Of a stretch of 64,000 nt of DNA, positions 27,033-39,005 are shown in pieces. Numbering within the stretch: the stretch's first letter is position 1; each line of letters opens with the position of its first letter. This DNA is from Nitrospirota bacterium (lineage in GTDB: Bacteria; Nitrospirota; Thermodesulfovibrionia; UBA6902), in assembly GCA_016213945.1 (NCBI GenBank), contig JACQZF010000032.1, positions 20,324 through 84,323 of the forward strand. The letters are read 5' to 3'. The position numbers and the translations under genes were made by a program. Under the pieces are notes generated by a model. That model saw nothing but the letters and a program-made list of their open reading frames with translations. It was not told the DNA's origin and searched no databases.

Positions 27033-27476
27033 ATGGATAACAGGACAAAAATACTGATTGCCTTTCCATTCATTTTCATTATAATATTTTTTATCGCGGC
27101 GAACTATTTCCCTTTCAAAGGCGGGCTTACGGATATCGAAGACCGCGTATTGGCATTCACGCCTGCTTCGCTTTCAATAAAGGAAAGGCCTGCAATTTCT
27201 GTCAGCGGAGAAATCAAAAGCCCCATGGATTTCAGCTCACCGGCTGTTTCAGCAAGCGTGGAAAAAGAGGGTGATTTAGTTCCTGAGATGGACTATAATG
27301 ATACGTATTTGTCACTCATAGTAATAAGCGGAAAGAGAAAAATGGCGATTATAAAAGGCTCCCTCGTCAGAGAAGGCGAAAGTATTGACGGCATGAAAAT
27401 AGCCAGGATAGAGCCTGACAGGGTCCTGGTAAAAAACAAGACTGAAAAATGGCTGTACCTTGAGAGGTCGAAATGA
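27033..27476 (+). CDS. PilP/MshK-like pilus assembly protein
   Basis: TM anchor. C-terminal ...MAIIKGSLVREGESIDGMKIARIEPDRVLVKN pattern. Overlaps the secretin gene. Confidence 0.45.
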   Translation: MDNRTKILIAFPFIFIIIFFIAANYFPFKGGLTDIEDRVLAFTPASLSIKERPAISVSGEIKSPMDFSSPAVSASVEKEGDLVPEMDYNDTYLSLIVISGKRKMAIIKGSLVREGESIDGMKIARIEPDRVLVKNKTEKWLYLERSK

Positions 27477-29029
27477 AAAAGTGTTTTCTGTCTTCTGTTT
27501 TCTGTCTTCTGTTCTCTGTCTTCTGTCTTCTGTCTTTCATCTCCTGCGCCGCTGTCGGCCAACTGACAAAAAAGCCGGAGAAGAAAATAGACCTCAGCAA
27601 ACAGATGGCCGCGGCAGAAACAAGACCTTCAGAAGCGCCCGCGCCTCAGCTTCCAGGGCCCGTGACCCCCGAATTTGTCCCGGCCAAAGAGGACACCTCG
27701 CCGCTTCAGACCAAGACCGTGTCCGTCTCCGCAAGGAGCACTCCTCTCAGAGAAGTGCTTTTCACTATTGCCGAGACCGCGAGCCTCAATCTCGTAATGG
27801 AGCGCGGAGTTGATACTGAACTCCCTGTGACCATGACATTAAAAAACATAAGCGTTCAGGACGCGCTTAATATCATCCTTGATTCATCCGATTATTTTTA
27901 CTCGGTCACTGAAAACATCCTTACCGTCAGGGCCATGGGAACGGAGATATTTGAGCTTGGCCACCCTAACGTGGTGCAGGAATATAAAATGAATGTCGGC
28001 GGAGATATCCTCAGCGGGACTTCTTCCGTGGGCCAGTCTGCCAACGCGGTAAGCGGCGACGTATCGATCAAGTCCTCCTCTGACAATGTCTCGTTTCAAT
28101 TCTGGGACGCCATTGAAAAGACAATGGGGACCATACTGAAGCCTGAGCAGGGAAAAGTGGTCCAGCCGGCCTTTGTCGTTAACAGGATGGCAGGCACTGT
28201 GATGGTCACCGCGGCAAAAAAGGACCTGAAAAAAGTCGGTGATTATTTTACCAACCTGAAAAAGGTGCTTAACAGGCAGGTGCTGGTAGAGGCGCGCATA
28301 GTCGAAGTCCAGTTGTCGGAAGGCCTGAAGTACGGAATAGACTGGAACGCCTTAATTAAAGGCGTGGCCCAGAGCGCGAACATCAACGTGGGCACAACGG
28401 GATTTACAAATGTGCTTACCGGCGATACACCGAACTTTCAGGTCAATGTCACCGGGACCGAAAACTTGACACTCCTCCTGAAGGCCTTGCAGGAACAGGG
28501 CGATGTGCAGACGCTTTCCAATCCGAGAATAAATATTATGAACGGGCAGACCGCGTTGTTAAGCGTCGGCAGGAACACAAGTTTTATTTCAAAGGTTGAG
28601 ACCGTTACGACAACCTCCGCGGGCTCCGCGCCGACAACCACCTTCACCGTTGAGACCAACAGCGTGCTTTCCGGCATTCTGTTCGGCCTTGTGCCGTACA
28701 TTAACAGTGATGGGGAAATAACTCTGACAATAACCCCTATTGTTACAAACCTCGTCAGCCTTGAGTCAAAGATCGTCGGCGCCACGGACAATTCGGTTGA
28801 GATAAAGCTGCCCACTGTGGACCTGAGGGAAATGAGCACCACGGTCAGGATCATAGACGGACAGATAGTCGTTATCGGAGGGCTCATAAGTAAAAATACA
28901 AAATCAACCGAGAATAAAATTCCACTGCTTGGCGACATCCCGGTGTTAGGCGAATTTTTCAAGAGCGTAGACAAGACAGACGAGCAGACAGAGCTTGTGA
29001 TAATGCTGATACCAAGGTTGATGATTTAA
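27473..29029 (+). CDS. type IV pilus secretin (MshL/PilQ-like lipoprotein)
   Basis: Lipobox LSFISC. Secretin C-domain LSNPRINIMNGQTALLSVG ... IPLLGDIPVLGEFFK. Confidence 0.85.
   Translation: MKKCFLSSVFCLLFSVFCLLSFISCAAVGQLTKKPEKKIDLSKQMAAAETRPSEAPAPQLPGPVTPEFVPAKEDTSPLQTKTVSVSARSTPLREVLFTIAETASLNLVMERGVDTELPVTMTLKNISVQDALNIILDSSDYFYSVTENILTVRAMGTEIFELGHPNVVQEYKMNVGGDILSGTSSVGQSANAVSGDVSIKSSSDNVSFQFWDAIEKTMGTILKPEQGKVVQPAFVVNRMAGTVMVTAAKKDLKKVGDYFTNLKKVLNRQVLVEARIVEVQLSEGLKYGIDWNALIKGVAQSANINVGTTGFTNVLTGDTPNFQVNVTGTENLTLLLKALQEQGDVQTLSNPRINIMNGQTALLSVGRNTSFISKVETVTTTSAGSAPTTTFTVETNSVLSGILFGLVPYINSDGEITLTITPIVTNLVSLESKIVGATDNSVEIKLPTVDLREMSTTVRIIDGQIVVIGGLISKNTKSTENKIPLLGDIPVLGEFFKSVDKTDEQTELVIMLIPRLMI
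27481..27537 (+). repeat. 7-bp tandem array (TTCTGTC-type) encoding the secretin signal peptide
   Basis: gtgttttctgtcttctgttttctgtcttctgttctctgtcttctgtcttctgtcttt is read as CFLSSVFCLLFSVFCLLS. Confidence 0.85.
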
Positions 29030-29108
29030 GGAAAGGGATGAAGGCAAAAGGCAGACGGATGAAGAGTTTGAGAATTCGTCCTTCCCTCATCCTTCTGCCT
29101 TCAGAAAT

Positions 29109-30758
29109 ATGAAACTCGGCGACAGTCTGATAGAGAAGGGCCTGTTAACAAACGAGAGACTTTCGCTCGCGCTGGCCCATCAGAAGATAACGGGCTCCAT
29201 GCTTGGAGAGACCCTTGTTAAGCTCGGGTTTGTATCTTCAGGTGAAATTGCCAAAACTCTTGCGGACCAGACGGGAATCCCTTTCATTGACCTGTCCGAA
29301 TACAATGTGTCTGAAGACGCCATCCGTCTCATCCCGAAAGAAATTGCTGAAAAGGCCGGCTTCATACCCCTGCGTTTGACCGACAGCTCTATCGAAATAG
29401 GGATCACCAACCCTTCAAACATACAGGCCATCGACACCGCGTCAAAGATATCAGGGAAAAAACCCAGGATCTTTTTGATCGACAACACTGGTTTTTATGA
29501 GACCCTTGAGAGGGTCTATTTCTTTCTTGCAAACCCGATACAACAAAATATTGAAACGGCGATCAACGAAATAAAATCCTCTCCCTCCCTTCCCGCGGCA
29601 ACTGTTGCGGACCTTGCGCAAAATTTAATAATGGAAGGGATAAGGAGAAAGGCAACGGATGTCCATATAAGCCCTGCCGCCGACACTATGAATGTTTTTT
29701 ACAGGGTGGACGGCGTGCTGCAATACGGCTTCTGCATCCCGAAGGCCGCCCAGGCAGGGATCATATCGAGGATCAAGGTCATGTCCCTGCTGGATATCTC
29801 GGAGCAGAGACTGCCGCAGGACGGTTCTTTTTCCATGAGTTTTTTAAACACAAAATACGAGATGCGCATATCGACTACGCCCACAATTTACGGCGAGAAC
29901 GTGGTCATCAGGGTGCTTGCCGGCGGCACAGGACAACTGCTCAGGCTTGAAGGGCTCGGCTTTGACCCCGGAAACACAAAACGCCTGCGGGCGCTTTTTC
30001 AAAAGCCCTACGGGATAATTCTGATCACCGGGCCTACCGGCAGCGGTAAGACAACAACGCTGTATGCGGCCCTGAGAGAGGTGGACCTGATCGAAAGGAA
30101 CGTCCTGACCGTTGAAGACCCGGTGGAATACAAGCTGAGCTTTGTAAAACAGACCGCGGTGAATCTGAAGGCGGGTTACGACTTTGCCCTTGCCGGAAGA
30201 AACTTTATGAGACAGGACCCGGACGTCATGCTGCTTGGAGAGATAAGAGATGAGGAAACCGCGAAGATCGCCATCCGCGCCTCCATCACCGGGCATCTCG
30301 TCCTGTCCACCCTTCACACAAATGACGCGGTGACGTCGGTCCCAAGATTGCTCGATTTTAACATTGACAGGTTCCTTCTGTCCTCCTCGCTTCTTGCAGT
30401 CGTTGCCCAAAGGCTTGTCAGGAAACTCTGCAGTAACTGCAAGGAAGAGTATCAGGTGACGGATGAAGAACTTGAGCTGATAGATATCTCAGGATTAAAG
30501 GACGTCACTTTAAAGACCGCCTTCCGGGCAAAGGGCTGCAATATGTGCAGCAATACCGGATATATGGGAAGGACGGTCGTCGGCGAAATCATGGTCGTCA
30601 ACGACGAGATCAGGGAGCTTATCGCGGCAGGCTCGTCATTGATGAAGATAAAAGAGGCGGCGCTGAAACACGGCATGGTGCCGCTAAAGGCCGCCGGTAT
30701 CCAGAAGATCAAACAAAACATCACCAGCATCGAGGAGATCGTCAGGCTGATAGACTGA
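29109..30758 (+). CDS. type IV pilus/T2SS ATPase with MshEN-type N-terminus (MshE-like)
   Basis: Walker A GPTGSGKTT, Asp and His boxes, tetracysteine CSNC...CNMC. N-terminal tandem xLGxxL(I/V)xxG(L/F)(L/V)xxxx(L/I)xxxLxxQ motifs. Confidence 0.9.
   Translation: MKLGDSLIEKGLLTNERLSLALAHQKITGSMLGETLVKLGFVSSGEIAKTLADQTGIPFIDLSEYNVSEDAIRLIPKEIAEKAGFIPLRLTDSSIEIGITNPSNIQAIDTASKISGKKPRIFLIDNTGFYETLERVYFFLANPIQQNIETAINEIKSSPSLPAATVADLAQNLIMEGIRRKATDVHISPAADTMNVFYRVDGVLQYGFCIPKAAQAGIISRIKVMSLLDISEQRLPQDGSFSMSFLNTKYEMRISTTPTIYGENVVIRVLAGGTGQLLRLEGLGFDPGNTKRLRALFQKPYGIILITGPTGSGKTTTLYAALREVDLIERNVLTVEDPVEYKLSFVKQTAVNLKAGYDFALAGRNFMRQDPDVMLLGEIRDEETAKIAIRASITGHLVLSTLHTNDAVTSVPRLLDFNIDRFLLSSSLLAVVAQRLVRKLCSNCKEEYQVTDEELELIDISGLKDVTLKTAFRAKGCNMCSNTGYMGRTVVGEIMVVNDEIRELIAAGSSLMKIKEAALKHGMVPLKAAGIQKIKQNITSIEEIVRLID
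30734..30758 (+). repeat. direct repeat copy 1 (the last 25 nt of mshE, stop included)
   Basis: GGAGATCGTCAGGCTGATAGACTGA, identical to 33122-33146. Confidence 0.9.
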
Positions 30759-30789: not shown

Positions 30790-31275
30790 ATGGAAAATGA
30801 AAAAAATACATTAACGCCCCAATTAGCTGACTTCAAAGCAGCTATCACAAAAGAGTTCTACTCGGAAAATCAATTTAAAATTGATGCTGTAAACTCAAAA
30901 ACATTTATTTTACAATTAGCCCAACATAACCCCAGATCATTTGTTTCAGGAAGTCCAGTTGCACTTGGTAAAGTATTACAGGAGTATAACAGAAACGAAT
31001 TTCACCATATTTTCCCCAAGTCATATTTGAAAACAGTTGGAAAAGAAGATAAGACAATAAATTGCTTGGCAAATTTTTGTTTTATGTCTAAAGCAGATAA
31101 TAATAAACTTGGTGCTGATAGTCCAAGTAAATATAAAACAAAAATGGCACTTAACACAGAAGAAATTCTTGAATCTGCATTTACTTCAGATATAGTTTTT
31201 TTGGACAACTTTGAAAACTTTATTGATGATCGAGCCAACAAACTTTGGCAATATGCAACAACTATGACATCATAA
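30790..31275 (+). CDS. DUF1524/HNH-like nuclease C-terminal fragment (GmrSD/DUF262-family tail)
   Basis: EFHHIFPKSYL ... INCLANFCFMSKADNNKLGADSPSKY resembles the His-Me finger of DUF1524. The frame is open upstream to the TAG inside the repeat, and there is no DUF262 half. Confidence 0.45.
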   Translation: MENEKNTLTPQLADFKAAITKEFYSENQFKIDAVNSKTFILQLAQHNPRSFVSGSPVALGKVLQEYNRNEFHHIFPKSYLKTVGKEDKTINCLANFCFMSKADNNKLGADSPSKYKTKMALNTEEILESAFTSDIVFLDNFENFIDDRANKLWQYATTMTS

Positions 31276-31361
31276 CAAATACCAGTTAGCGCCGGGGGTT
31301 CCTATTGAACGATTACAGCCCCAAAAACTTAAATGTTATGATAATATTATCGGGAGGGTTG

Positions 31362-32132
31362 ATGCCGAGAAAGCGATTAGAGAACAAACCACTCGTTGAA
31401 GCCATCTTTGAATTAAGATGGGAATTAAAGGAAATCGGTCAAGGTATCAAGGTAGACCCGCACTATAAAATCCTTGTTGGCAGCCTATACTCGAAACTAA
31501 AAGAGGAATATCCCCACCATGAGCCTTTACCGGCCTCCTCATTGCCTGATGATATGGCGGGATATGTAATTCAGCACAGATTCAGGAAAGGTGAAAATGA
31601 ATGGCCTCTAATACAAATAGGGCCGGGCATTCTCACGGTTAATGATACGGCAGGATATATATGGGAGGATTTTGAAAAAAAAGTTTTAGCGGCAGTTACC
31701 TCTCTTTTTGAGTCATACCCGCAACCGGAGAATATTAAAATAAATAGTTTGCTTTTAAGGTATATAGACGCCGTTGAATTCAATTATCAATCTGATAACA
31801 TTTTTAAGTTTCTGTTAAATCATATGAAAACAGGTATCAAGTTATACCCGGACCTGTTCAATGGGACTGGGGTTGAGTCTGTGCCTGCATCGTTCGATTG
31901 GCGATTTTCTTTTCCTTGCAAGAAGCCTGAAGGCATTATTCATTTGAGATTTATCAGAGGTAAAAAGGCAAATGCCGATGGATTAATTTGGGAAACGATG
32001 GTTCAGTCAACGGAAGGAAAAGCATCGCAGATATCCAATCAAATAAAGAAGTGGCTAAATGATGCTCACAATTTAACAGACGACTGGTTTTTTAAATTAA
32101 TAAACGGAGAGTTGGAAAGGAGATTCGAGTAA
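31362..32132 (+). CDS. TIGR04255-like uncharacterised protein
   Basis: Start MPRKRLENKPLVEAIFELRW follows gggaggg; this N-terminal pattern matches my memory of TIGR04255. About 256 aa. Confidence 0.5.
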   Translation: MPRKRLENKPLVEAIFELRWELKEIGQGIKVDPHYKILVGSLYSKLKEEYPHHEPLPASSLPDDMAGYVIQHRFRKGENEWPLIQIGPGILTVNDTAGYIWEDFEKKVLAAVTSLFESYPQPENIKINSLLLRYIDAVEFNYQSDNIFKFLLNHMKTGIKLYPDLFNGTGVESVPASFDWRFSFPCKKPEGIIHLRFIRGKKANADGLIWETMVQSTEGKASQISNQIKKWLNDAHNLTDDWFFKLINGELERRFE

Positions 32133-32494
32133 TGCTCGATAATATTTCTTCAACGCATGTAAAAATTAGTCCAACGTTTATGCTTGGTTCAAGCTCTACC
32201 GATGGCGAGGACAGGGAATTTCTGAATTTCGTTCAATATCCGCTTAGAGAACTTTTGTATGGAGGAGAATTCTCATGGCTCGAAACAACATCCCATCCCG
32301 TAACAGTTTCTATTTTCTTTAAGAATGAAACTTATAAGTCCGCAGGAGTTATTCCGGAAGAAATGCTGGAACATGATATATTTGTGAAAATGCCTCCTAA
32401 AAGAAGACGCACTGTTAAATTCAAGATAAGGAGTATAAGGAAAGCGAAACCGAGAATAGTCATTCCGGAGTATCCCTATATAGATAATATTTGA
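32132..32494 (+). CDS. hypothetical protein (120 aa, basic C-terminus)
   Basis: TAATG overlap with the upstream gene. KMPPKRRRTVKFKIRSIRKAKP tail. No family recognised. Confidence 0.45.
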   Translation: MLDNISSTHVKISPTFMLGSSSTDGEDREFLNFVQYPLRELLYGGEFSWLETTSHPVTVSIFFKNETYKSAGVIPEEMLEHDIFVKMPPKRRRTVKFKIRSIRKAKPRIVIPEYPYIDNI

Positions 32495-32498
32495 TAAG

Positions 32499-33035
32499 AT
32501 GCAAACAAGAGATTTCCCATGGTATGAAACAGTTGACAATAAAGAGCCTGTACTGCAGGGAGATTTTCTTTTATCGTGTCCTGTTTTTATCCCCACAACA
32601 GAGTCTTTATTTAATGAAGGCGAGTCCCCTGCTGGCGATATTGAAGAGTATGATGTAATTGTCATGAGCCAATCGTGCGATCTTGTTCTCAAGAAACTGG
32701 ATTTGGTGCTTGTCTGTCCCATCTGGTCATTGGGCGAATTGGAAAGGGAAAACGATTATTTCAAAAAGCGGGAAGGAAAAGAAACTTTACGCCAGGGTAA
32801 TGTTCCGGGATACCATCTTTTAAACGTGTGCGATATTGATGGTTTTCAGAGAGAATATACAGCTGTTGATTTCAGGCATTCATACAGTTTACCATTTAAT
32901 CTTGTCATTGATATTGCCCAAAAACAAGACAAAAGATTGAGGCTACTCCCGCCTTACAGAGAGCATCTTTCCCAAGCATATGCCAGATTCTTTATGAGAG
33001 TGGGATTGCCTGTTGATATCCCCAAGTTCAAATAA
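32499..33035 (+). CDS. hypothetical protein (178 aa) with QGD...VIVMSQSCDL...LVLVCPIW pattern
   Basis: Starts 4 nt after the previous stop. No family recognised with certainty. Confidence 0.5.
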   Translation: MQTRDFPWYETVDNKEPVLQGDFLLSCPVFIPTTESLFNEGESPAGDIEEYDVIVMSQSCDLVLKKLDLVLVCPIWSLGELERENDYFKKREGKETLRQGNVPGYHLLNVCDIDGFQREYTAVDFRHSYSLPFNLVIDIAQKQDKRLRLLPPYREHLSQAYARFFMRVGLPVDIPKFK

Positions 33036-33121: not shown

Positions 33122-33146
33122 GGAGATCGTCAGGCTGATAGACTGA
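33122..33146 (+). repeat. direct repeat copy 2 (relic of the mshE 3' end)
   Basis: Identical 25-mer. Imperfect similarity to the mshE end continues about 10-14 nt further upstream. Confidence 0.9.
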
Positions 33147-33222: not shown

Positions 33223-33471
33223 ATGAAAACAGCGATATCCATCCCGGACGACATATTTAAAGAAATAGACAAGACCGCCAAGGAATATAATTACTCGCGA
33301 AGCGAGATATTTACTATGGCAGTTAAAGAGTTCCTGGAAAAGATAAAATCCAGGAAGCTTTTAGACGCTCTTAATGAGGCATATTCAGGGCCGGAACCCG
33401 CTGAGGAAACCTCATTAAGACAGAAAAGCAAAAGATATTATTCCCGGAAAATCATGAAGGGACCCGATTGA
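33223..33471 (+). CDS. ribbon-helix-helix (CopG/MazE-like) antitoxin
   Basis: MKTAISIPDDIFKEIDKTAKEYNYSRSEIFTMAVKEFL. Overlaps the toxin start (TTGA). Confidence 0.8.
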   Translation: MKTAISIPDDIFKEIDKTAKEYNYSRSEIFTMAVKEFLEKIKSRKLLDALNEAYSGPEPAEETSLRQKSKRYYSRKIMKGPD

Positions 33472-33821
33472 ACATCAAACAGGGCGATATTTTCTGGCTT
33501 GATTTAGGGGCGACCAAAGGTTCAGCGCCGGGCTACCTGCATCCCCACGTTGTCATTCAAAACAATATTTTCAATAAAAGCAAGATCAACACCGTTGTAG
33601 TTTGCGCCATAACTTCCAACCTCAAGAGGGCTTTGTCACCTGGCAATGTTACGCTTAAAAAAGGAGAAGGCGGACTTAAGAAAGACAGCGTCGTCAACAT
33701 ATCACAGTTAATAACAGTTGACAAATCAGACCTTATTGAAAAGCTCGGCACACTGCCGCCATCAAAAGTCAGGCAGGTGGTAGAAGGCATTAAGCTGCTG
33801 ATGGAGCCGAGAGACATTTAA
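33468..33821 (+). CDS. mazF: PemK/MazF-family type II toxin (endoribonuclease)
   Basis: GDIFWLDLG...HPHVVIQNN...VVVCAITSNL...SVVNISQLITVDKSDL. TTG start. Confidence 0.85.
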   Translation: MNIKQGDIFWLDLGATKGSAPGYLHPHVVIQNNIFNKSKINTVVVCAITSNLKRALSPGNVTLKKGEGGLKKDSVVNISQLITVDKSDLIEKLGTLPPSKVRQVVEGIKLLMEPRDI

Positions 33822-33828
33822 AAACCAT

Positions 33829-35049
33829 ATGCCTTTCTTCACATACAAAGCGATCAACAGCGACGGCGAGGTGATCAAGGGGATTGTTGAGGAATTAGAC
33901 GAGGACAATGCCTACACCAATGTAGCGGCATCGGGACTGCATATTTTAAAAATCCGGCAGGCCCGCAGTTACGCTGATTTCTATTTAAAGAAAATACGCT
34001 CGTGGGGCATAAAAGCAAACGCGGTAATTGAATTCGCGGCAAACCTTTCCGTGATGCTCCGCTCAGGCATCCCGCTCGTCACCTCTATTTCCGATATAGC
34101 TATGACAACGGAGAATAAACGCTTCCGGGCCAGGCTTCTTGAGGTCAAAAGGAATATCGAGCTTGGGGCGAGCTTCTCATCTTCTTTGTCAGCGCACTCT
34201 GATATATTCCCTGAGATTTTTATAAATCTTACCATGGTCGGCGAGGAGACGGGAAGGCTGGATGAAAGTCTGTCCGAGGTTGCATTGCACCTCCAGAGGA
34301 TGGAGGACCTGAGAAGCGCGATCATAAGGGCGCTCATGTATCCCGTATTTGCCCTCATCGGCACCACGGGGGCGCTTTTGTTCTGGCTCATATATGTCCT
34401 TCCGAAGATGAGCACTCTCCTGACTTCCATGGATGTGAAGCTTCCCGCCCTCACACAGAATCTTATTCTGGTCAGTAATTTCAGCCAATCCAATTGGTAC
34501 ATCTTTATTGCTGCGCCGCTGGCCATTTATATTCTCCTTGTTCTTTTGTCGAAGAAGGAGTCTACTAAATATTATGTTGACGCGGTGAAGCTGAAAATTC
34601 CCATCCTCAACCTGCTCCTGTCCAATAAACTGCTTGCGCTTTTTGCGGAGCAGTTCAGGATACTGGCCACGGCGGGAGTTACGATTGACAGGTCGTTTGA
34701 CATTATGATAAATGTTATAAGCAATTCCGTATTCAAAAGGGCGCTTGTAGACATAAAGGGAGATATCATGCTTGGCAGCAGGATAAGCGAAGCGCTCAAA
34801 AAGCATGATAAATTATTCCCGAATCTGGTTGTTAGGATGATGTCTATCGGAGAGTCCACCGGCAATCTCGGCGAGCAGCTCAATTATCTGTCAGAGTATT
34901 ACCTGAGAAAGCTCGATGACATCTCGCAGAAGATGGGAAAGATGATAGAGCCGATCATTATCATTGTCATAGGGGCCATATTCCTGGTAATAATCATCGG
35001 CCTCATGTCTCCCATATACGATCTAATCTCGCAGATAGGCAAACAATAA
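33829..35049 (+). CDS. type IV pilus/T2SS platform protein (PilC/GspF/MshG-like)
   Basis: Two GspF repeats, three TM segments, 406 aa. Starts 8 nt after the mazF stop. Confidence 0.9.
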   Translation: MPFFTYKAINSDGEVIKGIVEELDEDNAYTNVAASGLHILKIRQARSYADFYLKKIRSWGIKANAVIEFAANLSVMLRSGIPLVTSISDIAMTTENKRFRARLLEVKRNIELGASFSSSLSAHSDIFPEIFINLTMVGEETGRLDESLSEVALHLQRMEDLRSAIIRALMYPVFALIGTTGALLFWLIYVLPKMSTLLTSMDVKLPALTQNLILVSNFSQSNWYIFIAAPLAIYILLVLLSKKESTKYYVDAVKLKIPILNLLLSNKLLALFAEQFRILATAGVTIDRSFDIMINVISNSVFKRALVDIKGDIMLGSRISEALKKHDKLFPNLVVRMMSIGESTGNLGEQLNYLSEYYLRKLDDISQKMGKMIEPIIIIVIGAIFLVIIIGLMSPIYDLISQIGKQ

Positions 35050-36443
35050 TGGACTTTCTGAATTTCTTTGGACTGAAAGAAGACCCTTTTAAATTAACAC
35101 CCGACCCCGCCTATTTTTATCCTTCATCAACTCACAACGAAGGGCTTCTTCTGCTGGACTACTCCATAGAGCAGAAAGAGGGATTCACCACCGTCATCGG
35201 CGAGCCCGGCAGCGGAAAGACAACGCTCCTTAATGTGTTTTTGGAAAAATGGAAGGCTAAGGCGGAGATAGCGATTGTCCTGACCCCGAGATTATCTCCT
35301 GAAGAATTTTTAGCTTCAATACTTGATGACCTGGACATCGGCCCCAGGCGCAAAAACAAAAATGAGATCATAAAGGCATTCAGGGACTTCATGATCGAAA
35401 AATCATCCGCAGGCAGGTGGGTCGTAATTATCGTTGACGAGGCGCAGAACCTTCCTGATGAGACGCTTGAGGAATTGCGCCTGCTTTCAAATCTCGAAAC
35501 CGACAAAGACAAGCTCCTTCAGATCGTGCTTCTGGGACAACCCGAGCTTGAGACAAAATTGATGTCTGAGAAACTCAGGCAATTGGACCAGAGGATAACC
35601 ACGCGCATTCATCTCGGGCATTTCAATCATAACGAGACGCTCGATTACATAAACTACAGGGTCATCAAGGCGGGAAAGCAGAACCTCCAGATCGACAAAA
35701 AGGCCGGGGCCCTCGCGTATAAAATTTCAAAAGGCGTACCGCGTTTAATAAACATGCTCGTATCCCGCGCATTAATGGCGGCGTATCTGGAAGAAAGCAG
35801 CGTTGTCCTGCCAAGGCATATTCAACATGCCATGAAAAGCCTTGACCACAGCGAGATGAAAAATCAGAAGTTCGGATTGATACCCGTATCGGCGGGGATA
35901 GTTTCAGCCCTCCTGATTATGGGGTCAGCCTATTTCTACTTTCAGCATGACAGTCAAAATGCTCTTAAAGAACAACTGAAGACAACCGAAACAAATCTGG
36001 TCCGGAAACCGGCTGACAGCGATGTATATAACAGGGAAGCTAAACATGAAAAGCGTACAACCCCTCTTAATCCCCCCTTATCAAGGGGGGAATCAGGGGG
36101 GTCATTTCCTGAGCCACCACAAAGGAATACTGAAGACTCATCCCTGCAAAAAATGTCTGAACCGATTATTGTTTCCTCAGAACAGACACAAACTCCTCCA
36201 TACAAACTTGTATTCGTTAAAGTCGATGTTGCCAATGTCAGGGAGAAACCAGCCCTTGATTCTGAAACCGTAGGGCAATTATTAAAAAGCGCCCAGCGCG
36301 CTGTGCTTCAGGAATATGTGGATGACAGCAATTTAAAATGGTATCAGGTCTCTTTCCACGGAGAAAAACGCTGGATAGCTGAAGAGGTGGTAGAGGTGGT
36401 TGATCTGGAAAAGATGAACGGGGAACCCGAAACTGCAAACTAA
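35049..36443 (+). CDS. ExeA/MshM-like AAA ATPase with C-terminal SH3b-like domain
   Basis: FGLKEDPF, Walker A GEPGSGKTT, Walker B IVDEAQNL. C-terminal VKVDVANVREKPALDSETVG...WYQV. G5/C5 element in frame at about 36060-36110. Confidence 0.8.
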   Translation: MDFLNFFGLKEDPFKLTPDPAYFYPSSTHNEGLLLLDYSIEQKEGFTTVIGEPGSGKTTLLNVFLEKWKAKAEIAIVLTPRLSPEEFLASILDDLDIGPRRKNKNEIIKAFRDFMIEKSSAGRWVVIIVDEAQNLPDETLEELRLLSNLETDKDKLLQIVLLGQPELETKLMSEKLRQLDQRITTRIHLGHFNHNETLDYINYRVIKAGKQNLQIDKKAGALAYKISKGVPRLINMLVSRALMAAYLEESSVVLPRHIQHAMKSLDHSEMKNQKFGLIPVSAGIVSALLIMGSAYFYFQHDSQNALKEQLKTTETNLVRKPADSDVYNREAKHEKRTTPLNPPLSRGESGGSFPEPPQRNTEDSSLQKMSEPIIVSSEQTQTPPYKLVFVKVDVANVREKPALDSETVGQLLKSAQRAVLQEYVDDSNLKWYQVSFHGEKRWIAEEVVEVVDLEKMNGEPETAN

Positions 36444-36450
36444 ATAGTAT

Positions 36451-36584
36451 CTGTCCATAAATTGCAAGTTTTCAGTTTCGTCATGCCCGAAGTCTTTAAT
36501 CGGGCATCCAGAGCTGCTGAAAAGACTGGATTCCCGCTCAACAGACTGCGGGAATGACAGTTCAATGTTCGAGTTTATGGACAG
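36451..36584. repeat. variant GTCATGCC...GGAATGAC element nested in the outer inverted repeat ctgtccataaa/tttatggacag
   Basis: Read directly from the sequence. Confidence 0.6.
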
Positions 36585-36597
36585 ACTCCATTGAGCC

Positions 36598-37668
36598 TTA
36601 CCTGCTGTTCTGCAAAAGCATGATCCTCTGCTTCACTTCCGCCCGAGTCCTGTCATCAAGCGGACCAATAGCGTATGCGTTCCTGTAGAGTTTAAGGGCA
36701 TCATCTGTCTTGCCCTGCCTTTCATACACGCGGGCAAGCCCCAAAGTGCCTGACACATCGCCTGACCTTGAGAGCTGCGAGAAATACTCCGCTGCCTTTT
36801 CATGATCCGTCTGTTTCTCATAGAGCAGGGCGAGATTCAAAACAGCGGTTTGATTATTCGGCTCAATCCGCAGCGCGTGATTGAAATTCTCCTCTGCCGC
36901 TGAAATATTGCCTGATCTCGCAGAGGCGATCCCAAGATTGATCAACGCGGGTACGTAATCCTTGTTTATCTCCAATGCCATTTGGCAATACCTGACAGCT
37001 TCGTCAAACGCGTTCATCTCAAGCAGTATGTATGCGATGTTGTTTATGACGGCAACGTTGTCCCTGTCTATCTCCAGGGCCTTTTTGTAATTCATGAGCG
37101 CCTTTGAATAATCTTTTGCCGCTTCATGCTCCCTCGCGCTGTACAAATAAAAATCCTCCCCGGATTCATTCAGGCTTTTCCCCTTGGAACTTGCCGGGCC
37201 TTCCTTTTTTACGATAACCTGCTGCAGGTTCGGGAGGATCTCTCCGGCTTTCTTTTCAAGAGGGCGGGGCATTGCCGCTTCCTGTTTCTTTGAAACAACT
37301 GCCGGCTTGCTGACTTCTTTACCTTGCTCCGCTCCCGCTGATTCCGGGAGCTGCGCTTCCCGGGCAGGTTTTAAACCTGCCCCTGCGGGGGGAGCGGGAT
37401 TATTTTGATCAGCAGGTGATGTCGTCATTCTTCTTTGTGTTGCAACGTTGATATTGCTGACTGATTTTTCGGAGAGCTTATTTACAAAAGACACAAAAAA
37501 GACTCCTGTTATTATGGCAACGGCAAACAGGACGGACAATAAAATTATCCTGCGCCTGTTCGCTGATCTTTTTGCTGAGCTTTCTACAATGCTTTTAAGA
37601 TTCGGAGGGACGTCCCTTTTGGACTGGGGCTGTTTGATCTTTGAGAGTAAATCTGCCAGAAGGCTCAT
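36598..37668 (-). CDS. TPR-repeat protein (MshN-like)
   Basis: Start chosen at MSLLADLLSKIK. TM anchor and several TPR units (YSKALMNYKKALEIDRDN...). GGGGCAGG palindrome in frame at about 37365-37395. Confidence 0.55.
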   Translation of the reverse strand: MSLLADLLSKIKQPQSKRDVPPNLKSIVESSAKRSANRRRIILLSVLFAVAIITGVFFVSFVNKLSEKSVSNINVATQRRMTTSPADQNNPAPPAGAGLKPAREAQLPESAGAEQGKEVSKPAVVSKKQEAAMPRPLEKKAGEILPNLQQVIVKKEGPASSKGKSLNESGEDFYLYSAREHEAAKDYSKALMNYKKALEIDRDNVAVINNIAYILLEMNAFDEAVRYCQMALEINKDYVPALINLGIASARSGNISAAEENFNHALRIEPNNQTAVLNLALLYEKQTDHEKAAEYFSQLSRSGDVSGTLGLARVYERQGKTDDALKLYRNAYAIGPLDDRTRAEVKQRIMLLQNSR

Positions 37669-37790
37669 AAATTTAAGTTCCGTTAATTTTAGTAACCAAT
37701 TATAACAAAATATATCTGCGATTATCTGCGGCAATCTGCGGCCTCTACGTATTGCATCTTATATAAAAAATCCTGTATCCTTTTTCTGTC

Positions 37791-39005
37791 ATGCAGATGC
37801 CCAAACCCGAACAACAGCTCCAGGTAATCAAAAGAGGAGTGGTCGAGATACTGGTTGAAGAAGATCTCATCAGGAAGCTCGATCGTTCTTACCAGACGAA
37901 CACGCCCCTGAAGATCAAGGCCGGGTTCGACCCAACCGCACCCGACATTCATCTCGGACATACCGTGCTTCTTGAAAAGATGCGGCAGTTTCAGGACCTG
38001 GGGCATGAAGTGGTTTTGATAATCGGAGACTTCACCGGGATGATAGGCGATCCCACGGGAAGGTCCGAGGTAAGGAAACCTTTGACAAAGGACAATGTCC
38101 TGAAAAATGCAGAAACCTATAAGGCCCAGGTTTTCAAGGTCCTCGATCCCGGCAGGACGCAGATCAGATTTAACAGCGAGTGGCTTGAAAAAATGACCGC
38201 AATTGAAATTATCAGACTTCAGGCAAAACAGACCGTTGCGAGAATGCTTGAACGTGAAGATTTCAAACAGCGCTTTGAAAACCACAGCCCGATAAGCATC
38301 CACGAGTTTATTTACCCGCTTTTGCAGGGCTACGATTCAGTGGTCCTGAAGGCCGATATTGAGACCGGCGGTACGGACCAAAAGTTCAACCTCCTGATGG
38401 GAAGGGCCCTGCAGCAGGAATACGGGCAGGCGCAGCAGGCGCTTGTGCTTATGCCTCTGCTTGAGGGCACTGACGGTGTGAAAAAGATGAGCAAGAGCCT
38501 TGGCAATTACATCGGCATTACAGAGCAGCCCAAGGACATGTTCGGAAAGATCATGTCCATCAGCGATGAGCTGATGCTCAGGTATTACGAACTGCTGAGC
38601 CGTATCTCTATTGACGAACTGAGTAAATTAAAAGAAGGCATCAAAAATAATTCGGTGCATCCGATGGAGGCAAAGAAATCGCTTGCGTTTGAGATCGTCG
38701 AGAGGTACCACGGTAAAGAAGCCGCTGAAAAAGCGAAAGAGGAATTCGGGCACATATTCAAAGACAAGGGGATGCCTGATGATATCCCTGTGTTTAAGCT
38801 CGGTCCCGCCGATGCGGAGATCTGGCTTCCAAAGATCATGAAGCTCTCCGGCCTCGTTAAGAGCACGGGAGAGGGGATCAGGTTAATAAAACAGGGCGGC
38901 GTCAGCGTGGGTAATGAAAAGTGGGACGACCCTGACAAAAAACTTCCTGCCGGTGAATACCTTCTCAAGGTTGGGAAGAGAAGATTTCTGAAGATATTGC
39001 CGTAA
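37791..39005 (+). CDS. tyrS: tyrosine--tRNA ligase
   Basis: HLGH (DIHLGHTV) and KMSKS motifs, C-terminal S4-like domain. Confidence 0.9.

Follow-up and report, generated by a model that had tools for sequence, protein, structure and literature searches.

Three tightly spaced genes, designated here A, B and C, form a cassette in a 64,000-nt stretch of DNA from a Nitrospirota bacterium (contig JACQZF010000032.1), and this whole stretch is referred to as the window. The cassette was picked out in an initial annotation, made from the letters of the window without database searches, which proposed an undescribed defence or toxin-type module. The features of the cassette and of its surroundings are shown in Table 1.

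The three open reading frames (ORFs) are translationally linked, as the initial annotation had read them. The TAA stop codon of gene A (32130-32132) shares one base with the ATG start codon of gene B (32132-32134), and genes B and C are separated by 4 nt (TAAG, 32495-32498). The same gene order and coupling were found again in dozens of unrelated bacterial and archaeal genomes. Gene A starts with an ATG (MPRKRLENKPL...) that is preceded by a GGGAGGG Shine-Dalgarno sequence. A longer ORF with a TTG start at 31305 was considered and ruled out because homologues of gene A begin at the ATG residue of 31362.

Table 1 Features of the A-B-C cassette and its surroundings in the window
Feature	Position	Strand	Description
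Gene A	31362-32132	+	256 aa, putative accessory third component; TIGR04255
Gene B	32132-32494	+	120 aa, putative antitoxin or adaptor
Gene C	32499-33035	+	178 aa, putative toxin; predicted MazF/Kid/CcdB-type fold
Conserved C-terminal tail of B (..IPEEMLEHDIFVKMPPKRRRTVKFKIRSIRKAKPRIVIPE..)	32342..32491	+	Putative C-binding, C-neutralizing element
Leader of gene A (AAATGTTATGATAATATTATC...GGGAGGG)	31326..31361	+	-10/TATA-like element and Shine-Dalgarno sequence
Left 25-nt direct repeat copy (GGAGATCGTCAGGCTGATAGACTGA)	30734..30758	+	3'-terminal 25 nt of the pilB-like ATPase gene, stop codon included
Right 25-nt direct repeat copy	33122..33146	+	86 nt past the gene C stop; closes the 2388-bp unit
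GmrSD_C-like stand-alone ORF	30790..31275	+	161 aa, HHIFPKS motif; resembles the C-terminal His-Me (DUF1524) domain of GmrSD
Ribbon-helix-helix (RHH) antitoxin and PemK/MazF toxin genes	33223-33821		82 aa and 117 aa, 4-nt overlap; PemK E 1.5e-27
Type IV pilus/type II secretion-like cluster	27473-30758 and 33829-37734		Host locus, assigned from translations alone
TyrRS-like gene	37791-39005		Next to the host cluster; read from its translation

Gene C, a putative toxin

Gene A had been the only one of the three that the initial annotation could recognize, and the database searches agreed: C gave no significant match in Pfam (E ≤ 1), NCBIfam, PADLOC or PHROGs, and B gave no match in the same four collections. 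Sequence searches of the PDB with single sequences and family profiles of A, B and C returned chance matches only. The AlphaFold (AF2) model of C (pLDDT 86, pTM 0.82) was more informative. When it was compared with the PDB using Foldseek, the matches ranked 1 to 44 were all MazF, Kid or PemK proteins (probability 0.9-1.0, best E 3.3e-4), with TM-scores of 0.55-0.70 against MazF/Kid, normalized to targets of about 110 aa. According to its model, C is predicted to be a protein of the MazF/Kid/CcdB fold, an SH3-like barrel followed by a C-terminal helix, into which insertions of about 60 aa have been placed.

The sequence of C carries the motifs QGD, [ST]QxCD, LRxG, PPYRE and FARFFMRVGLP, of which the last four are kept throughout the wider family. 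The SQSCD motif, which had looked conserved in the single sequence, is invariant across 54 aligned homologues. His106, His156 and Cys73 vary in the wider family, and His106/His156 was rejected as a candidate catalytic pair because both residues vary in more distant members. The sole stretch aligned to MazF by hhalign pairs P74 of C with P50, and W76, a near-invariant residue of C, with the catalytic T52 of MazF (E. coli numbering). The 54-sequence alignment of C holds no conserved Arg before the strand equivalent to that of R29, by a mapping that is partly inferred. On this partly indirect mapping the Arg/Thr catalytic pair of MazF appears to have been lost, and C is probably best described as combining the MazF fold with a functional site of another kind.

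Gene B, a putative modular antitoxin

Gene content was counted in 80 genome loci, 74 of which had enough upstream sequence to judge the presence of A. In 71 of the 80 loci, a hidden Markov model of the tail of B detected a tail-bearing ORF whose end lies 0-50 nt upstream of C, and this direct succession is the classical antitoxin-then-toxin layout. The tail comprises about 45 residues and consists of F-x-[IK]-KNET, an acidic helix, hD-h-x-V-[RK]-h-PP, a beta-hairpin and P-x-IV-x-PE. A sequence search with B returned just 24 homologues. Between the window and archaeal loci, the alignment of B is confined to the last 40-45 residues or so, and A and C are 58-60 % and 62-64 % identical, respectively; B thus appears to evolve fast, unlike A and C.

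The initial annotation had suggested that the strongly basic tail of B could bind nucleic acid. This was not borne out, as the positive charge is not conserved: the net charge is +6 in the clade of the window and has a median of -2 among 73 homologous tails. The tail is more likely to be the toxin-binding part of the protein.

The region that precedes the tail differs greatly among loci. In Oscillatoria sp. PCC 10802 (L081, a 104-aa ORF) the tail is joined to a RelB-like domain (PF18506, E 1.2e-9, 38.3 bits, cut-off 27), in a planctomycete (L050) it is fused to TPR repeats in a 324-aa ORF that ends 27 nt before C, and in a member of the Chloroflexia (L059, 367-1488) it is attached to a RES toxin-type domain. 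The N-terminus has an RHH-like look in Asgard archaea and a DUF104-like look in Planctomycetes, with matches that are not significant, and it is very short in Methanothrix. In the window, residues 1-70 of B form an N-terminal extension, in which the short motifs GSSSTDGED and KNET are also seen in A-linked loci. The extensions of A-linked B proteins have in common the motifs MYQLT..DVT, SSS..EE.D and E-x-D-x-SS..P-x-F, and the subfamilies of B track those of A. The part before the tail has a median length of 83 aa in loci with A (n = 39) and 51.5 aa in loci without it (n = 26; Mann-Whitney p 1.4e-4, a value that ignores phylogeny and is based on ORF starts that are upper bounds). The N-terminus of B therefore has the appearance of a swappable module, which can be RelB-like, TPR, RES or an extension of the kind seen in the window.

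These fusions also bear on a different allocation of roles, which we regard as improbable. C could be a MazF-fold protein without catalytic activity that serves as an adaptor or regulator, with the activity residing in A or in an N-terminal domain of B, such as RES, tethered to C through the tail. The absence of the MazF catalytic residues from C, the RES domain on the tail in L059 and the conservation of A, which with 55 invariant alignment columns is as strong as that of an enzyme, are consistent with such an arrangement. It is countered by the existence of B-C pairs that have neither A nor an effector-like domain and in which B can be as short as 70 aa or less, by the RelB-like domain plus tail upstream of C, which is the canonical order of antitoxin and toxin, and by the invariant polar motifs of C itself, which suggest an active or binding site.

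Gene A and its leader

Gene A had been likened to the TIGR04255 family, and the match proved to be full-length: residues 5-256 align with positions 1-252 of the 252-position NCBIfam profile (136.5 bits, cut-off 30, E 1.3e-39). Of the 74 assessable loci, 38 have a TIGR04255 gene upstream of B-C, which is a close homologue of gene A in 30 loci and belongs to a divergent TIGR04255 subfamily in 8; the divergent proteins of L077 and L085 pass the NCBIfam model with 134.9 and 78.4 bits (E 4e-39 and 7e-22). In 26 of 31 loci, the stop codon of A and the start codon of B overlap, either by 4 nt or by a single base. B-C also occurs without A, for example in Methanothrix. The conserved universal core is B-C, and A is an accessory gene of about half of the loci. 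As a separate observation, two archaeal loci (L035, with a 303-aa ORF, and L060, with a 222-aa ORF) have unrelated proteins in the position of A upstream of B. These two proteins have a D-I-R-P-I-F-N motif in common and gave no Pfam or NCBIfam match, and they may constitute an alternative accessory family.

The AlphaFold model of A (pLDDT 85) was matched by Foldseek to archaeal TATA-binding protein (TBP), di-domain ARO/CYC, Bet v 1/START proteins and DynU16 in the PDB, with E values down to 5e-4 and TM-scores of just 0.2-0.3, so that the fold class is approximate. A search of viral structures gave one good unnamed match (TM-score 0.5-0.6) and the TBP-like VETF large subunits (VETF-L); this reinforced the TBP-like class and gave no function. 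A may loosely be placed, from its model, among the two-lobed alpha/beta proteins of the TBP/helix-grip class. This fold serves DNA binding or small-ligand binding, and the matches allow no catalytic inference. In PADLOC, gene A gave a chance-level match to Cas5g only (E 0.024).

The leader of gene A is near-identical in four Nitrospirota-type loci. A related leader of about 45-50 nt (GTTATATGAAATGGCG.CTTTAGAAAA.ATATGGAGGT) is common to bacterial and archaeal loci, upstream of A, and was found in L001, L004, L011, L016, L017, L025, L026, L028 and L030. Sequence farther upstream is unrelated (0.27 identity). The leader may act as a promoter in bacteria as well as in archaea, and it appears to mark the boundary of the mobile unit.

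Distribution and genomic context

Homologues of C numbered 4435 at E ≤ 1e-3 in a 90%-clustered database, and a 50%-identity library held 2271 clusters of the family, 435 of them below 1e-30. Almost all members are stand-alone proteins of 165-200 aa. When one genome per GTDB species was scanned, C was encoded in at least 559 species, which belong to many bacterial phyla and to Methanothrix, Syntrophoarchaeum, Thermoplasmatota, DPANN and Asgard archaea, the last including Promethearchaeum syntrophicum MK-D1, Heimdallarchaeota and Jordarchaeum. The cassette is regarded as horizontally transferred because it is patchily distributed across phyla and archaea while being about 60 % identical between the two domains. 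Absence of the three-gene combination outside this genome had been named beforehand as an observation that would refute the initial proposal; the counts of tail-bearing B with C and of A given above show the partners together in many other genomes.

The genomic context differs in every lineage examined. It includes restriction-modification, MNT/HepT, HEPN/MNT, Phd/ParE, AbiEii, SLFN/AAA_15 and ThsB-TIR genes and transposases, and also plain housekeeping genes. The 148 nearest ORFs fell into 165 Pfam families, mostly of housekeeping function, with some toxin–antitoxin (TA) and defence genes. Two candidates were rejected on this neighbour survey: a conserved fourth gene, since none was recurrent, and strict residence in defence islands. 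No C homologue was found in phage and plasmid collections, and among the 2.9 million viral contigs of IMG/VR, C occurs at only 4 loci. Gene A gave two weak partial matches in the plasmid collection; one of these, in Marinobacter, lies where no gene is annotated, in surroundings that gave no further clue.

These data bear on whether the cassette is a dedicated anti-phage abortive-infection system, in which A or the N-terminal module of B would sense phage, B would be displaced or degraded, and C would arrest the cell. Such a system would differ from a TA module mainly in its role, namely defence rather than addiction or selfish maintenance. Some loci do adjoin restriction-modification, HEPN/MNT, AbiEii, SLFN/AAA_15, ThsB-TIR or GmrSD remnants, the variable and sensor-like N-termini of B (TPR) fit recognition, and the quick evolution of this region fits an arms race. 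We nevertheless consider a dedicated defence role unlikely, given that PADLOC (PADLOC-DB v2) matches none of A, B and C, that the nearest neighbours are mainly housekeeping genes with no recurrent defence partner, that A and C show more conservation than is usual for genes in an arms race, and that C is so scarce in viral contigs and absent from the phage and plasmid collections. Of the two halves of the initial proposal, the toxin-type one is the better supported, by the predicted MazF/Kid fold of C and the RelB-like domain that can carry the tail of B, and the defence one was not supported by the neighbours or by PADLOC. The suggested neighbourhood analysis likewise confirmed the co-occurrence of the partners and, among the 148 nearest ORFs, found no recurrent defence partner.

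A compact housekeeping or metabolic operon, with A as the helix-grip ligand binder of a small-molecule pathway, is disfavoured and considered highly improbable. The weak likeness of A to Bet v 1, START and ARO/CYC ligand-binding proteins and the position of several loci among metabolic genes would agree with it. No search of the three proteins assigned them to a housekeeping pathway, an assignment that the initial annotation had named as refuting its proposal. The patchy spread with about 60 % identity between domains points to horizontal transfer instead, each lineage offers a new context without a conserved fourth gene, the cassette in the window has low GC and flanking direct repeats, and neither the predicted MazF fold of C nor the joining of the B tail to a RelB-like domain agrees with such an operon.

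The repeat-bounded unit and its mobility

A repeat search of the window found two copies of a 25-nt direct repeat with 100 % identity and a spacing of 2388 nt. The 2388-bp unit bounded by these repeats consists of the GmrSD_C-like fragment and A-B-C, and its GC is 0.32-0.41, compared with about 0.50 in the flanking pil genes. No recombinase is present within the unit. The repeats look like att sites or a target duplication. The closest relative (L008, 87-91 % identity) lies outside any pil cluster. An Rfam scan of the island found nothing and gave no sign of an RNA antitoxin or riboswitch.

The neighbours named in the initial annotation, a nuclease fragment and a mazEF module, were both recovered. 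The 161-aa ORF gave weak matches to Pfam GmrSD_C (E 0.029, profile positions 47-108 of 138) and to PADLOC Orf5 (E 0.0018), and at other loci no homologue of it was found next to the cassette. What the unit carries here is probably a degenerate defence gene, left over from a type IV restriction gene. The RHH-PemK/MazF pair lies outside the repeat-bounded unit and abuts the start of pilC, and this canonical mazEF pair is probably a separate, earlier insertion between pilB and pilC. The island as a whole is located between the pilB-like ATPase gene and the pilC-like gene.

As read from the translations, the host cluster also comprises a secretin-like ORF, the pilB-like ATPase and a pilC-like membrane protein. 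Further members are an AAA ATPase of 464 aa whose C-terminal region is SH3-like and a TPR protein encoded on the minus strand, and the cluster is followed by the TyrRS-like gene.

Direct repeats of 21-103 nt also flank B-C or A-B-C in many other genomes. In Methanothrix (L018, L020, L021, L022 and L029) they resemble a dispersed repeat family, in Chlorobiaceae (L076, L079 and L086) they resemble duplicated gene segments, and L042 is repeat-flanked as well. These repeat-flanked modules possibly reflect a cassette-like mobility that is associated with integrons or with repetitive extragenic palindromic (REP) elements.

Proposed mechanism

The A-B-C cassette is interpreted as a horizontally mobile, type-II-like TA module with A as a third, regulatory or sensor subunit, to which we assign a rough probability of 0.55. 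The fold of the C model, the conservation and architecture of the module, the modularity of B, the association of A with longer B proteins and the mobility were observed directly, and the toxicity, the binding partners, the target and the role of A are inferred as follows. C would be the toxin and would probably act in a non-canonical way on a target that bacteria and archaea share, either RNA or a core machine. A non-canonical mechanism is proposed because the Arg/Thr pair of MazF appears lost and C has an invariant surface of its own ([ST]QxCD, PPYRE, FARFFMRVGLP), and a target common to both domains of life because C is about 60 % identical between bacteria and archaea. B would be a modular antitoxin whose C-terminal residues, about 45 in number, bind and neutralize C. 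Its N-terminus would be an exchangeable input or regulatory module, and in two-gene versions it could be a RelB-like DNA-binding antitoxin domain. In the version found in the window, A would be a regulatory subunit that docks on the motif-bearing extension of B, about 70 aa in length.

Several roles were weighed for A. Slightly favoured, and still tentative, is that of a DNA-binding or autoregulatory partner which replaces the apparently absent DNA-binding domain of B, because in two-gene versions that place can be taken by an antitoxin domain of the DNA-binding kind and because the predicted fold of A is of a DNA-binding type. It is rather doubtful that A is a trigger or ligand sensor which releases the toxin in the style of abortive infection, and quite unlikely that it stabilizes the antitoxin as in toxin–antitoxin–chaperone (TAC) systems.

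A number of observations weigh against a TA module of this kind or against parts of it. Sequence homology between C and MazF was not detected, the hhalign probability against a four-sequence MazF alignment being 0.9 %, and RNase activity of C is not to be assumed because the position of the catalytic Thr is occupied by Trp76. In the RES fusion a toxin-type domain occupies the N-terminus of B, so that B is less easily read as a simple antitoxin. No recognizable DNA-binding domain was found in the B protein of the window with Pfam and NCBIfam, and beyond the TIGR04255 assignment of A there was no significant domain match for A or B. The length difference between B proteins with and without A and the fold class of A are subject to the limits given above. 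The leader was also considered as an operator for A, a role that its identity of 0.60 does not demonstrate, as this is close to the identity of third codon positions (0.565) and indicates no extra constraint.

The fullest form of the proposal is put forward tentatively. It is that of a new and widespread three-component system of bacteria and archaea, in which A docks on the motifs of B and, by binding DNA or by sensing a ligand or invader, controls a MazF-fold C protein. In C, a new Cys/Asp-containing site ([ST]QxCD with PPYRE) would replace the RNase site and act on a target common to both domains.

Insights from the cassette

The large family of C, for which no Pfam or NCBIfam model exists, gains a predicted MazF/CcdB fold and a putative toxin-like role. 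The sporadically distributed TIGR04255 family gains its first functional context, as the candidate accessory subunit of a TA-type module. The proposed design is unusual in that one short toxin-binding tail would be combined with many N-terminal input modules, and C seems to be conserved enough to work in bacteria and archaea, which would imply a universal target. Cultured carriers, among them Oscillatoria sp. PCC 10802 and Promethearchaeum syntrophicum MK-D1, make the cassette testable. Metagenome assemblies assigned to Acetomicrobium and Methanothrix also carry the cassette, and both genera have cultured members.

Comparison with known systems

The initial annotation knew of no described system with this composition, and none was found in the library or literature searches. 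The literature search returned no paper that mentions TIGR04255 and none on the MazF-like fold, and for tripartite TA systems it returned known systems only.

MazEF, Kis-Kid, PemIK and CcdAB are similar to the cassette in the predicted toxin fold of C (MazF/Kid/CcdB), in the small upstream gene that is conserved at its C-terminal end, in the short or overlapping gene spacing and in the mobile, patchy distribution. MazE, Kis and CcdA neutralize their cognate toxins through their C-terminal regions, and the proposed binding of C by the tail of B parallels this. The cassette differs from these systems in that C has no sequence similarity to PF02452, has a Trp at the position of the catalytic Thr, no conserved equivalent of the Arg and about 60 extra residues, in that B of the window has no recognizable AbrB or RHH DNA-binding domain, and in that a third, translationally coupled gene of the TIGR04255 family lies upstream.

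The order of accessory, antitoxin and toxin genes is also found in omega-epsilon-zeta, PaaR-PaaA-ParE and HipBST (for HipBST, PMC10627512), which are tripartite TA systems with a separate regulator. Their antitoxins have no DNA-binding domain of their own, and none was recognized in B of the window. Omega, PaaR and HipB are RHH and helix-turn-helix proteins, whereas A is unrelated to them and is a 256-aa protein predicted to be TBP/helix-grip-like. In TAC systems, a C-terminal chaperone-addiction extension of the antitoxin confers dependency on the chaperone (PMC5105189, PMC6377645). The cassette resembles them in that a third protein would be tied to an antitoxin extension, B being longer at its N-terminal side where A is present. 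It differs from them in that A is not SecB-like (SecB is absent from the Foldseek matches of A), in that the extension of B is N-terminal, and in gene order.

Hyperpromiscuous TA networks, such as those of the Panacea/DUF4065 antitoxins and NetFlax, combine one conserved element with many partner domains. In the cassette, by comparison, the conserved elements would be a short toxin-binding tail and one toxin family, and the promiscuity would reside in the N-terminal module of the antitoxin. The general category of the cassette, a TA-type module, is a known one, and what is new is a previously unannotated family of putative toxins together with an accessory TIGR04255 protein.

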